Shown: positions 55,432 through 58,568 of the stretch, one piece after another
Layout: every line of letters starts with the position of its first letter
Position numbering within the stretch: position 1 is the first letter of the stretch
Assembly: GCA_013335095.1 (NCBI GenBank)
Contig: JAAXWF010000001.1
Coordinates: 22,797-86,796 of the forward strand
Direction of reading: 5' to 3'
DNA: 64,000 nucleotides
From: a candidate division WWE3 bacterium
GTDB lineage: Bacteria; Patescibacteriota; 4484-211; GCA-002791395
The notes under the pieces: model-generated
What the model was told of the DNA's origin: nothing
What the model saw: only the letters and a program-made list of their open reading frames with translations
Databases searched by the model: none
Position numbers and translations under genes: made by a program

Positions 55432-56457
55432 TTACTTACAATAATCATTTAAAAAACTCAGTTTGGAGTAATAGGTTTCTTCAATCGAAATACCAGCAGA
55501 GCGAAGTAGGTCTTTAGTAACTGCATAAACTTTTTCTAATTCCTCAGTTACAGTTTGTAGGGGGAGTACGGTACGGCTTTTTAAATATTCGATCTCACAT
55601 TGAGTCAATGTATATGCACGATCATTTAGCAAATAGGAATGGTCAAACATGACGCTGTAAATATTGCCGGTATTGAGCGATTCTAAGTTAACATCATATC
55701 GTCGACGTCGAAATGGCTCCCTTCGACTAAACGAGAGGTTTGGATAGTGCTCATGAAGATAATCCTCCATCGATGTTTTAATCCGTACATTTTTTGTGCG
55801 CTTTTCAATTCGTTCTAATGCATCGTTCTGATAAATCTTTTGTTTAACAACGTATTCATCATTTGGGCAGGTAATAAAAGAAATATATCCCCGTTCAGAC
55901 TGAGGCGCGGTTACTTCATATAAATAGTTATCAAAATCCCATTGATTAAACTGATCATGATGCTGCAGGATAAAATCTGGATAGGTACCCTTATTACCGT
56001 GGATATATATCATTTGGGCTAATTGCCATATTGATTGTTCGGTATGTATATTCAGTTTATATTCGATTTCAGTATCCTGATGATATTTCGTAAAGTAGGC
56101 ATCATGATTACTGAGCGGAATTCGTTTAGATTGTTGAATATCTACGCACTGCTCGAACAATGTCTTGCCGTTATTTACCGCCACAGCACCTCCAGCAATA
56201 TACAAGAGTGATTGGTCATCGGCCAGGACTAAAACATATATAGTACGTCTCGAACCGTTATCTAAAACTAAATATAACGGTCTTTTTGAGGATTTAGTGG
56301 ACAAAAACAGCTCGCCTGGAATCTGATTGGTATGGATGACCGCAGTATTTTCACCCATTAGAATGGAGGAACGATCGATTTTAACGACATCAAAAGTACT
56401 ATTTAAGGCAACATCATCAGAAGCTAATAGTAATTGAACGGTTGATTCAGTATTCAT
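55432..56457 (-). CDS. Hypothetical protein, translationally coupled (4-nt overlap) to the upstream PEP-utilising enzyme-like gene
   Basis: 341 aa. Confidence 0.5.
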   Translation of the reverse strand: MNTESTVQLLLASDDVALNSTFDVVKIDRSSILMGENTAVIHTNQIPGELFLSTKSSKRPLYLVLDNGSRRTIYVLVLADDQSLLYIAGGAVAVNNGKTLFEQCVDIQQSKRIPLSNHDAYFTKYHQDTEIEYKLNIHTEQSIWQLAQMIYIHGNKGTYPDFILQHHDQFNQWDFDNYLYEVTAPQSERGYISFITCPNDEYVVKQKIYQNDALERIEKRTKNVRIKTSMEDYLHEHYPNLSFSRREPFRRRRYDVNLESLNTGNIYSVMFDHSYLLNDRAYTLTQCEIEYLKSRTVLPLQTVTEELEKVYAVTKDLLRSAGISIEETYYSKLSFLNDYCK

Positions 56458-58568
56458 TCAATACAAACGTCATCTCCATTCGCAAAAACACTTAGAGCAT
56501 ATGGAATAACAGCAACTGGTGTATTATTCTCCCGTGCAATTATCGCCAGATGGCAAAGAACTGGTCCTGATTCAACAATAAAACCGCGGACTTTTCCGAC
56601 TAAAACGCTTAGAGCTGTATAGGGAAATTTAGACACAATAATAAGGTCGCTACTGCTGTCTGTTTGCTCCATTAGTTCACGAATCTCGACGTTTGATTCA
56701 AGAGTCGGCAGATGACCACTAATGTTTAGCGTTGGACCTGACGAGATGTATTCAAGCTTCTGTAAATCGTCGATCCGTAAAACTCGCCCCGCTAATTTTC
56801 CAGGACTAATAAAAACGGTAGAAGTTTGTGAATTCACTGTAGGCGATGAATCTTCGGTATTTGGCGTATTATCAATATATATAGGATCGCCATCAATAAT
56901 AGTCCATTCCAATATATTATTTTCGAAATGCTCGTTAACCGCTTTATTAAAAGAGGCAATCTTCAATAATGCTTCATGATTTACTTCAGTCATTGAATCT
57001 TCGGCAAGCTCCTGAAATGAGAATGACTTGGTATTTTCATCAAATCCGTAATAACGATTACTAATTAACGATCCACTCGCCCTTGTTACGGTACTATTCG
57101 ATAGGTCGATGTAATAACTTTCGGTCTCAACAAATCCACGATTTATACCAATGAGACTACCGCGACAGACTTCGACTAAATAAGCATCCCCTCGTTGCAT
57201 AGAAACCGCCGAGAATTGCCCTGATGCGAATTCACGAATAATCATAGGAATCGGTTTATTCGATGAGCGAATAAGTGTATGTATAACGTTATTGAGTTCT
57301 CCCCGTTGGGCATAAAAAGAACGCAAATGTGGTCCCAAATCAATGGTGAGGATTGGTGTCTTTAGCCGAGATAATGACGGAATCTGCTCGATATCCATTT
57401 GTGAAACGCCCCGCTGATTAGCAATGACAACCGCAGAACCATTTATCGAAATATCATTTTCAATCGCAAATATTCGTATAGGTTTTCGTTTAGATATACT
57501 ATGCCCATAAATTGGTTTAATCGACCCGATATTTTCTTCATCAATAAGGTTGGACTGTTGGTATAGATCAAATACTTTCAACACAGCTTGACTGGTATTG
57601 GCATGAGATTGTGTATGTTGTGTAGTTATCGGACGCGTCTGTAGCACATAAAACGTAGTACCTGCATATGCCCATTCGTATTCCATCTCCATGTTAAACG
57701 TATTCTTAAAAAGCTCGGCTGTCTCTAGCAACTGTTGGATTAATGTGTTTTCAAGATCATGTCGGCTAAGTAGATATTCGTGGGTTTGTTCATTTTTTAT
57801 AGCTGTAATAGATTGTGATGTACCCGTCCCCGATTCGATTCCATCAGATCCATCTTTTGTGTATTCGATAAATATTCCTCCGGTATTATTAACCGGATCG
57901 GTTGAGAAACAAACCCCCGAGAGTGACGGCCTTATGTACTGCTGGATGATTAGGCCAGGTAACGGGCTTATCTGAAATTCATTAATTCGAAGGCGATGGG
58001 CCAAGGCGGCCAATGAAAATGATGCTTTCCAACAGTGAACAATAGCTTCTTCAAGTCCTATCGGGTCTTGTATTCCGGATACGCTCTCATATATACCAGC
58101 TCCCGATGCGGCCTCGCCATCTTCAAAACAACTAGATGATCGAACGATCAGTGGAATTTTCCACCCTTTGGACAATCTTTCGGCTTCAGTAATCAGTTGA
58201 GTTCTAAGATCATCGTTAAATTGAATTCCATCAAGCGCCTGCATTATCGACTGCTGCATTTTATTCAACTGGTATCCACCATTCGATTTAAGCATGGTCA
58301 AATATCCCTGAATATCTTGTTTGGATTTTCTATCTAAAGAGTCTTCAAATGAAGTGTTGTTTAATGCGAATGCGGCTGGAACATGCACCAAGGAATTAAT
58401 TTGTGAAAGTTTGAAAAATTTGTTGCCAACTAGTTCTTGAGCACCTTCGCCCAAGGGTGTTACGTATGAGATACTCACCTTATATGGAATATACCACAAC
58501 TTTTCAACCGCGCAAGATGGTATTAATGCAATATGAATGAATTTAGCTACTATTAACCACACGCCCAC
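56454..58568 (-). CDS. PEP-utilising-enzyme-like phosphotransferase (PPDK_N ATP-grasp domain plus C-terminal mobile His domain, no TIM-barrel PEP-binding domain); rifampin-phosphotransferase-like architecture
   Basis: LIVRSSSCFEDGEAASGAG and SGVCFSTDPVNN blocks; C-terminal SGPVLCHLAIIARENNTPVAV swivel-His motif. Confidence 0.6.
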   Translation of the reverse strand: MGVWLIVAKFIHIALIPSCAVEKLWYIPYKVSISYVTPLGEGAQELVGNKFFKLSQINSLVHVPAAFALNNTSFEDSLDRKSKQDIQGYLTMLKSNGGYQLNKMQQSIMQALDGIQFNDDLRTQLITEAERLSKGWKIPLIVRSSSCFEDGEAASGAGIYESVSGIQDPIGLEEAIVHCWKASFSLAALAHRLRINEFQISPLPGLIIQQYIRPSLSGVCFSTDPVNNTGGIFIEYTKDGSDGIESGTGTSQSITAIKNEQTHEYLLSRHDLENTLIQQLLETAELFKNTFNMEMEYEWAYAGTTFYVLQTRPITTQHTQSHANTSQAVLKVFDLYQQSNLIDEENIGSIKPIYGHSISKRKPIRIFAIENDISINGSAVVIANQRGVSQMDIEQIPSLSRLKTPILTIDLGPHLRSFYAQRGELNNVIHTLIRSSNKPIPMIIREFASGQFSAVSMQRGDAYLVEVCRGSLIGINRGFVETESYYIDLSNSTVTRASGSLISNRYYGFDENTKSFSFQELAEDSMTEVNHEALLKIASFNKAVNEHFENNILEWTIIDGDPIYIDNTPNTEDSSPTVNSQTSTVFISPGKLAGRVLRIDDLQKLEYISSGPTLNISGHLPTLESNVEIRELMEQTDSSSDLIIVSKFPYTALSVLVGKVRGFIVESGPVLCHLAIIARENNTPVAVIPYALSVFANGDDVCIE

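Follow-up and report, generated by a model that had tools for sequence, protein, structure and literature searches.

What is a protein with the looks of a rifampin phosphotransferase (RPH) doing in a bacterium of candidate division WWE3, one of the Candidate Phyla Radiation (CPR) bacteria, and why does its gene run directly into a second gene whose product is annotated as hypothetical? RPH phosphorylates rifampin through a phospho-histidine, and an earlier reading made from the letters of the DNA (the sequence-only reading) had placed the first of these two proteins, here termed the dikinase, close to RPH, with the second, its partner, as possibly defining the substrate. Both genes lie on the reverse strand of the 64 000-nt stretch analysed here, 'the window', and their coordinates, together with those of the other features considered, are collected in Table 1. 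The answer reached below is that what the pair marks is probably a step of phosphate or nucleotide chemistry that has yet to be studied, not rifampicin resistance. What we take to be new is a family-specific central domain of the dikinase that appears to be derived from ATP-grasp, an unannotated family of triphosphate tunnel metalloenzymes (TTMs) to which the partner would belong, and their conserved coupling as the core of a widespread uncharacterised cassette.

The outer parts of the dikinase are much as that reading had described them. The motifs it quoted, LIVRSSSCFEDGEAASGAG, SGVCFSTDPVNN and GPVLCHLAIIARENNTPVAV, are all found in the translation, and Pfam recognizes PPDK_N at residues 45-237 (E 2.9e-31; residue numbers throughout are those of the 704-aa version) and, at 23.8 bits versus a cutoff of 23.1, the PEP-utilizers mobile domain (PF00391) at residues 650-701. 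Two alignments serve for conservation, one of 17 close homologues (A2; 41-56% identity) and one of 14 sequences that includes homologues at 21-27% identity (A3). The Cys-His of the swivel motif LCHLAII is invariant in the former and His673, the histidine that the sequence-only reading required of a swivel, is still invariant in the latter; the ATP-grasp domain contributes invariant R143, S144, E149, D150, Q209, E298, W299, Q310 and R312. The TIM barrel is missing, as had been claimed: PEP-utilizers_C (PF02896) gives no match to the dikinase at E up to 0.1, and the chain stops 3 residues past the swivel-domain match. That the protein is an ordinary phosphoenolpyruvate (PEP) synthase or pyruvate phosphate dikinase (PPDK), as automatic names of homologues such as 'pyruvate, water dikinase' would have it, is refuted by this domain content, and its chances are practically nil; the NCBIfam PEP synthase models do match in part, but at 79-106 bits versus cutoffs of 598-976, about 10-fold under, and over the ATP-grasp domain only.

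The resemblance to RPH goes further, up to a point. When the AlphaFold2 model of the dikinase (mean predicted local distance difference test score, pLDDT, 80) is compared with the PDB by Foldseek, the best match is RPH itself, 5hv1 (E 1.4e-16), followed by HpeI, PEP synthase and PPDK, with 5hv6 also matched, and the order of domains is that of RPH (PDB 5hv1/5fbs), namely a PPDK_N ATP-grasp, a central domain and a C-terminal swivel with its catalytic His, with no TIM barrel. However, the structural alignments to RPH cover only about 350 columns, and when the dikinase family profile is run against PDB sequences RPH is matched only over profile positions 13-293, the ATP-grasp domain being the only domain matched. 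Cutting the dikinase alignment in three, and comparing each part with nine RPH-like proteins by hhalign, locates the break: the N-terminal part aligns with their ATP-grasp domains (probability 100%, E 3e-43) and the C-terminal part with their swivel domains (probability 97%), while the central part finds no alignment to their central region (probability 0.6%), a negative outcome of the comparison with the RPH middle domain that the sequence-only reading had suggested. The NCBIfam models for RPH score 78.6 bits versus a cutoff of 999 (NF041857) and 33.9 versus 1700 (NF000283), that is ~10-fold or more under. PF27448, which we take to be the rifampin-binding domain, is listed for RPH-like proteins, including one named rifampicin phosphotransferase by the Joint Genome Institute, and for none of the 17 close homologues. 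These scores, the non-matching central domain and the absent PF27448 rule out membership of the RPH family; of the RPH architecture proposed earlier it is the order of domains that stands.

Could the pair still inactivate an antibiotic or other xenobiotic in the manner of RPH, with the partner defining the substrate? The shared order of domains, the place of RPH as top structural and sequence match for the ATP-grasp domain, the lack of a TIM barrel and the coupling of two genes would all sit well with this. Against it, besides the scores, the unrelated central domain and the absence of PF27448 just given, are the enzyme-type set of conserved active-site residues borne by the partner, genomic contexts that look biosynthetic and not resistance-like (both considered below), and the presence of the family in CPR bacteria with no obvious rifamycin exposure; we judge it very improbable. 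Two more features set the dikinase apart from RPH. Its swivel domain has a conserved insertion of ~35 aa (LEYISSGPTLNISGHLPTLESN.EI; LEYISSGPTLN...), which is of low pLDDT and is not covered by the hhalign alignment to RPH-like swivel domains, and it has an obligatory-looking TTM partner, of which we know no counterpart for RPH. The split PPDK-like kinases for aromatic substrates, phenylphosphate synthase and HpeI (PDB 9goj), share with it a PEP-synthase-like ATP-grasp component accompanied by separate partner proteins, and HpeI is a strong match, in fold and in sequence, to the dikinase ATP-grasp domain. In those enzymes ATP binding and the swivel His are divided between subunits, whereas the dikinase carries both on one chain and its partner has an unrelated fold, that of the TTMs.

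If the central domain is not that of RPH, what is it? It has no Pfam match and no PDB sequence match, and it is retained in both close and distant dikinase subfamilies with invariant K360, R361, D410, R416, R445, E466, N476, R477, G478, E554, W555 and D566. The hhalign comparison that failed to align it to the RPH-like central region aligned it instead to the ATP-grasp domain of the same nine proteins (probability 79%, E 1.6e-5); compared internally, the N-terminal and central parts of the dikinase match one another in the same register (E 0.0025); the predicted order of strands and helices is identical in the N-terminal and central ATP-grasp regions; and the central motifs IIREFASG..SAVS, EVCRGSLIGINRG and LEWTI..YIDN echo IIQ..SGV, IEY..GIESG and EYEW..LQTRP of the first domain. 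Because of these four likenesses the central domain is, on sequence and predicted structure, considered to hold a degenerate second ATP-grasp core. The invariant residues of the central domain suggest that it binds phosphate and metal and does not offer a pocket for a hydrophobic drug.

The partner is one of those proteins about which sequence models are mute. Pfam, NCBIfam and PADLOC gave no match to it, and a profile of 59 family sequences, the alignment used for all partner conservation given here, retrieved nothing from PDB sequences at E up to 10; Pfam searches of the 59 members returned scattered sub-threshold matches, with CYTH absent among 25 families listed of the 29 matched at E up to 1. 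Its AlphaFold2 model speaks more clearly (mean pLDDT 95.1; predicted template modelling score, pTM, 0.92). The top Foldseek matches to that model in the PDB are TTM/CYTH enzymes, at probability 0.99-1.00 and target-normalised TM up to 0.61: SaTTM of Sulfolobus (7nsa, E 6.7e-6), Escherichia coli YgiF (5a60), yeast Cet1 (1d8h), the thiamine triphosphatase ThTPase (5a64/3bhd/3tvl) and the class IV adenylate cyclase CyaB (3n0z/2fjt), with the Mediator Med18/Med20 barrels likewise among the matches. E130, E132 and K134, the ExExK of the first strand, are invariant, as are K207, D212, R216, E218, R251, D272, Q286, E288, S331 and K332 further on, and R253, D255, E259 and E290 are nearly so. Since confident TTM/CYTH fold matches, the first-strand ExExK and the invariant charges on later strands coincide, the partner is best described, from model and conservation together, as a divergent TTM whose catalytic set looks complete, preceded by an extra N-terminal domain. 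With SaTTM, YgiF, the NeuTTM-type tripolyphosphatases (PPPases), ThTPase, CyaB and Cet1 it has in common the predicted beta-barrel tunnel, the ExExK and the acidic and basic invariants of later strands. It differs from them in having no detectable sequence similarity, in the additional N-terminal domain of ~125 aa (poorly conserved, and shorter in the window copy than in most homologues), and in being genomically coupled to a His-swivel dikinase or, elsewhere, found with NUDIX and 7-deazapurine genes. For the partner a passive role as a specificity subunit is unlikely, given this enzyme fold, the invariant charged residues and family members that live without any dikinase.

The partner family is rare, with 308 representatives at E up to 1e-3 among 1.84 billion in an exhaustive hidden Markov model scan. 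Some of its members are fused to other domains: a C-terminal phosphoribosyltransferase (P0055), a flavin N-hydroxylase-like domain (P0186), a second TTM in tandem (P0101) or, below the Pfam threshold, a nucleoside-diphosphate kinase (NDK)-like domain (P0226). IMG/VR yielded no relatives. A defence-system role was considered and rejected, PADLOC having given only a weak, irrelevant GajA match and IMG/VR having been empty.

How general is the pairing? The overlap of dikinase stop and partner start noted in the sequence-only reading is real and, being of the ATGA type, implies translational coupling of the two. A set of 53 loci with a partner homologue was assembled from look-ups of the encoding contigs, 43 GTDB genome loci and the window itself, a dikinase being counted when it matched the family profile over the ATP-grasp, central and swivel regions. 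By this measure a dikinase gene immediately precedes that of the TTM, in the same orientation, in ~33 of the 53, from at least 5 phyla, and lies within 4-6 kb of it in 2 further loci; the same −4 ATGA-type overlap is present also in L002, L008, L014, L015, L018 and L049. Among the hosts, which take in Actinomycetota and Proteobacteria, are WWE3, Saccharimonadales, Shapirobacteria, Sorangium, Streptomyces, Amycolatopsis, Thermoleophilaceae, Paenibacillus, Pseudomonas orientalis, Erwinia mallotivora, Variovorax, Rhizobium and a Ruminococcus metagenome-assembled genome. Coming from the other side, all 17 full-length relatives with the central domain found by word-indexed search are from the paired subfamily, several sharing a contig with a partner homologue; a third such protein search, with a mixed family profile, brought back the close subfamily only and no named member such as PhtL.

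Are the two then simply neighbours, a stand-alone triphosphatase TTM next to a stand-alone small-molecule kinase? TTMs without a dikinase, and the failure to see a fusion protein, could be read in this way. However, order, strand and overlapping stop and start are conserved over at least 5 phyla, the central domain of the dikinase goes along with the presence of a TTM, and the 17 central-domain relatives just mentioned tell the same tale, making mere adjacency quite improbable. What looked like a fusion of dikinase and TTM in L048 proved to be an artefact of a frameshift. Some copies look decayed: that same locus, on a Variovorax plasmid, has a frameshifted dikinase (7550-10720), one Streptomyces has a dikinase fragment only (L025, 8812-9528), and on one CPR contig the partner is shortened to 249 aa (L059, 9028-9777).

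The company that the pair keeps falls into distinct types. In the first, type A, to which the window belongs and which is that of CPR bacteria and Sorangium, the pair stands alone amid varying neighbours. Several glycosyltransferase genes flank it in two CPR loci (L058, 6054-12817; L008, 1-13387), one of them in L058 overlapping the partner stop codon, which hints at a role in glycan decoration there; NUDIX, Ham1 and HD genes are near the pair in L002/L003 and L009. In type B, represented by ~30 loci, the pair is embedded in a core cassette of the order DCD-DCD-dikinase-TTM(-second TTM)-unknown protein-AAA_18 kinase-type I nucleotide pyrophosphatase, where the two DCD genes are dCTP-deaminase-like and the unknown protein, of ~350 aa, is PF27840 'ScmC' in precomputed annotation. 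To this core are added, variably, ATP-grasp L-amino-acid ligases, a class III aminotransferase, a HAD or metallophosphoesterase protein and MFS/EamA/TauE exporters, and from its gene content the whole looks like an uncharacterised biosynthetic cluster; its hosts include Pseudomonas orientalis, Paenibacillus, Streptomyces, Variovorax, Erwinia and Rhizobium. An ornithine carbamoyltransferase (OTCase) gene is beside three independent cassettes (L006, 3189-4196, which equals L030; L021; L029). Then there are loci with the TTM only, two of which are on Streptomyces plasmids, linear (L055) and circular (L057), while L004, a metagenome contig, has its TTM fused to a phosphoribosyltransferase; a phage portal gene comes next in L057. 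These loci have a divergent NUDIX gene and often QueD, QueE, FolE and thymidylate kinase genes; L010 has a dehydroquinate-synthase-like gene instead. (Long overlapping ORFs in high-GC loci inflated the first clustering of open reading frames, ORFs.) Nucleotide and phosphoanhydride chemistry is, to judge by the genes, the theme shared by these contexts.

The reading that we favour, though at a shade under an even chance, is that dikinase and partner form a phosphotransfer module of two translationally coupled enzymes, with a nucleotide or a phosphoanhydride as substrate. By strong homology, the N-terminal ATP-grasp would bind ATP and transfer its beta,gamma-pyrophosphoryl group to His673 of the swivel domain with release of AMP, loss of the gamma-phosphate then leaving phospho-His. 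Going by conservation, the swivel may next take the phosphoryl group to a second site made by the central pseudo-ATP-grasp domain, whose invariant Lys, Arg, Asp, Glu and Asn would fit an acceptor bearing phosphate or a nucleotide, with a metal ion, and would not fit a rifamycin-type pocket. The third step is the most conjectural: a nucleoside triphosphate, or another triphosphate, might sit in the tunnel of the TTM, which would either join the phosphorylated product to a nucleotide with departure of pyrophosphate, in CyaB-like fashion (compare Cj1416, which acts after Cj1418), or instead cleave a tri- or pyrophosphate by-product. The outcome would be a small molecule, phosphorylated or activated with a nucleotide and perhaps containing an N-P bond, destined elsewhere for secondary-metabolite cassettes and in some CPR genomes perhaps for glycan decoration. 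Supporting the nucleotide theme are the DCDs, AAA_18 kinase and pyrophosphatase of the cassette, the TTM-phosphoribosyltransferase fusion and the weak NDK-like one, and the NUDIX, QueD, QueE, FolE and thymidylate kinase neighbours.

Several of the same facts could be turned to a more domestic account, in which phospho- or pyrophospho-His of the dikinase serves to build or recycle tripolyphosphate or polyphosphate, or to bring nucleoside mono- or diphosphates to triphosphates, with the TTM binding, making or hydrolysing triphosphate, as salvage or buffering for a reduced CPR genome. Characterised TTMs include tripolyphosphate hydrolases and a polyphosphate polymerase, the best fold matches of the partner are PPPase-type TTMs, and the central domain is rich in basic residues and ATP-grasp-like. 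The NDK-like fusion in one family member, the minimal pair of CPR bacteria and Sorangium with no biosynthetic neighbours, and the nucleotide-housekeeping genes near the pair in L002/L003 and L009 point the same way. But the rarity of the family is ill-suited to housekeeping, it is mostly met in accessory cassettes that have ligases and exporters and look biosynthetic, and the NDK match is under the Pfam threshold, leaving such an energy or phosphoanhydride role unlikely.

For the coupled phosphotransfer module there are parallels in kinases that make N-P bonds. TalE, a TIM-barrel-less PPDK-like kinase, forms the N-P bond of phosphoramidon via phospho-His (PMC6482885), and Cj1418, the L-glutamine kinase of the MeOPN capsule, phosphorylates the amide N of glutamine, the phosphoramidate being then borne on a cytidine nucleotide (PMC6429109). 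Similar chemistry has been proposed for PhtL of phaseolotoxin and AgnD1/2 of agrocin 84 (PMC4530439, PMC6482885), and PhtB of the phaseolotoxin cluster has been modelled, at 54% confidence, as a 'cyth-like phosphatase' (PMC5453526). As published descriptions liken them, all four kinases are TIM-barrel-less or 'bidomain' PPDK/PEP-synthase-like enzymes that act on small molecules through phospho-His; PPDK_N, a swivel His and no TIM barrel are found in the dikinase too. ATP-grasp amino-acid ligases adjoin them as they do the type B cassette, and in the Cj1418 pathway a nucleotide is coupled to the product in the following step. A resistant OTCase, ArgK, marks the phaseolotoxin cluster, and OTCase genes are beside three cassettes here. 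The ligases and nucleotide enzymes accompany distant homologues, not the window copy, and unlike the four kinases the CPR copy has no nearby ligase, exporter or OTCase; nor do we know of a report of a TTM partner adjoining TalE, Cj1418, PhtL or AgnD. We regard these analogies as suggestive. Searches of the literature on ScmC (PF27840), on CYTH with PPDK and on DCD with PEP synthase clusters turned up no account of the dikinase-TTM pairing.

One may go further and imagine the pair at the heart of a route, so far undescribed, that leads to nucleotide-activated donors of phosphoryl or phosphoramidate groups, with the TTM as nucleotidyltransferase on the product of the His-swivel kinase. The same core would then drive widespread clusters, in Streptomyces, Paenibacillus, Pseudomonas, Erwinia, Variovorax and others, that make phaseolotoxin-like P-N antimetabolites, some aimed at OTCase, and would serve surface glycan decoration in CPR bacteria. 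In this full form the proposal is decidedly unlikely.

A number of points weigh against the coupled phosphotransfer module, even in its plainer form. Because ~15 of the 53 TTM loci have no dikinase, the TTM is not strictly dependent on one, and no dikinase-TTM fusion was found among scanned TTM-family proteins longer than a single domain. In CPR bacteria the pair is without the DCD, kinase and pyrophosphatase genes, so the minimal version may do something other than the cassette does. The likeness of the central domain to ATP-grasp is, at the hhalign probability given above, moderate. Partner residues K207, R216/E218, R251/R253/D255, D272 and Q286/E288/E290 are at alternate positions on predicted strands, from which they may face the tunnel. 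The analysis demonstrates domain anatomy, invariant residues, the TTM fold of the model and conserved coupling of the genes; substrate, product and protein-protein contact of the pair are proposals, and the link to PhtL, PhtB, TalE and Cj1418 is by literature description. Finally, pAgK84 was absent from the plasmid tblastn matches of either protein (E up to 1e-3 for the partner and 1e-10 for the dikinase), and a direct link to agrocin 84 is unsupported.

It remains to describe the window copy and its surroundings. Both proteins are 100% identical to records of a candidate division WWE3 genome (HGA91_00465 and HGA91_00460), and since the exact proteins are on record and the pair is kept in dozens of unrelated genomes, the ORFs are not there by chance. 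The 704-aa length given earlier for the dikinase is confirmed as that of the longest ORF; yet that ORF begins 30 codons 5′ of the supported start (window 58478-58568), and the real start is probably the GTG at 58478, giving 674 aa, because the alignment of homologues, the NCBI call of 674 aa for HGA91_00465 and a pLDDT below 50 over residues 1-31 agree, the extra residues being predicted to be disordered.

Table 1. Features of the dikinase-TTM pair in the window, of its downstream neighbours and of related loci (positions are those of the window unless a locus is named)
Feature	Position	Strand	Remarks
Dikinase ORF	56454..58568	-	704 aa counted from first GTG
N-terminal ATP-grasp (PPDK_N) nucleotide-binding domain	57603..58478	-	residues 31-322
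Family-specific central domain	56817..57593	-	residues 326-584
Putative degenerate second ATP-grasp core within central domain	56871..57254	-	residues 439-566
C-terminal phospho-histidine swivel domain	56457..56816	-	residues 585-704; PF00391
Catalytic His673 codon, motif LCHLAII	56550..56552	-	invariant in A2 and A3; codon checked
Stop/start overlap ATGA, dikinase/partner	56454-56457	-	dikinase stop codon 56454-56456
Partner ORF	55432..56457	-	341 aa; NCBI HGA91_00460, annotated hypothetical protein
Partner N-terminal beta-rich domain	56083..56457	-	residues 1 to ~125
Partner TTM/CYTH-fold domain (predicted)	55435..56082	-	residues ~126-341; Foldseek and conservation
ExExK motif (EIEYK), first barrel strand (residues 129-138)	56056..56070	-	invariant, 59 sequences
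YtfJ/GerW homologue	54971-55366	-	downstream of pair; PF09579, E 5e-19
DUF2953 protein	54182-54847		downstream of pair; Pfam
Cassette examples	L044 6515-15159; L019 5840-14656		Pseudomonas orientalis DSM 17489 (L044) and Paenibacillus sp. S150 (L019); also L005, L006 and ~25 others
TTM-only loci	L055 4660-12720; L057 2108-10762; L004 1013-11049		divergent NUDIX; often QueD, QueE, FolE, thymidylate kinase

The ytfI/ytfJ-like neighbours to which the sequence-only reading had drawn attention are there, as a YtfJ/GerW homologue and a DUF2953 protein, and a divergent Nramp transporter gene is upstream of the pair. The 65-nt gap between pair and ytfJ holds a ribosome-binding site of its own, a weak promoter-like site and no terminator. 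None of the YtfJ, DUF2953, Nramp, DinB-like and DUF7919 neighbours of the window recurs in 50+ related loci, so that the ytfI/ytfJ adjacency is incidental, and a functional tie of the pair to ytfI/ytfJ, Nramp, DinB or DUF7919 was rejected for that reason. The window YtfJ/GerW homologue has a glycine-rich insert (GYGGGGGAGEGNDDPKGTPGGSGSGGGAGAG) in mid-domain; we know of no sporulation in CPR bacteria. Elsewhere in the window, G+C is 52-55% at 12000-26000 versus ~40% in the remainder, and this part contains a ClpB/ClpC-like ATPase gene (15607-17838), four long ORFs with no Pfam match and an Orn/Arg-decarboxylase-like gene (23097-24521). Two alginate-lyase-like proteins, encoded at 26956-29262(+) and 32473-34503(-), carry CBM6/CBM35 or PA14 plus dockerin modules and are perhaps unusual in a CPR bacterium. 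Neither a tRNA gene nor an Rfam family came up at threshold anywhere in the 64 kb.

PEP-utilising swivel kinases and TTMs have both been well studied but, to our knowledge, are not known to work jointly. The coupled pair would provide a new class of partner for the former and, for the latter, a new branch unseen by sequence models, and the labels 'PEP synthase', 'rifampin phosphotransferase-like' and 'hypothetical protein' carried by these genes are uninformative or wrong. The central domain illustrates that a swivel kinase may gain a second site through duplication of part of its own ATP-grasp. In many culturable bacteria the pair is the invariant core of a cassette of ~7 genes, and solving the chemistry of that cassette could reveal a new class of phosphorus-containing, nucleotide-derived metabolites and could bear on the long-open origin of the phosphoramidate group in toxins of the phaseolotoxin type.

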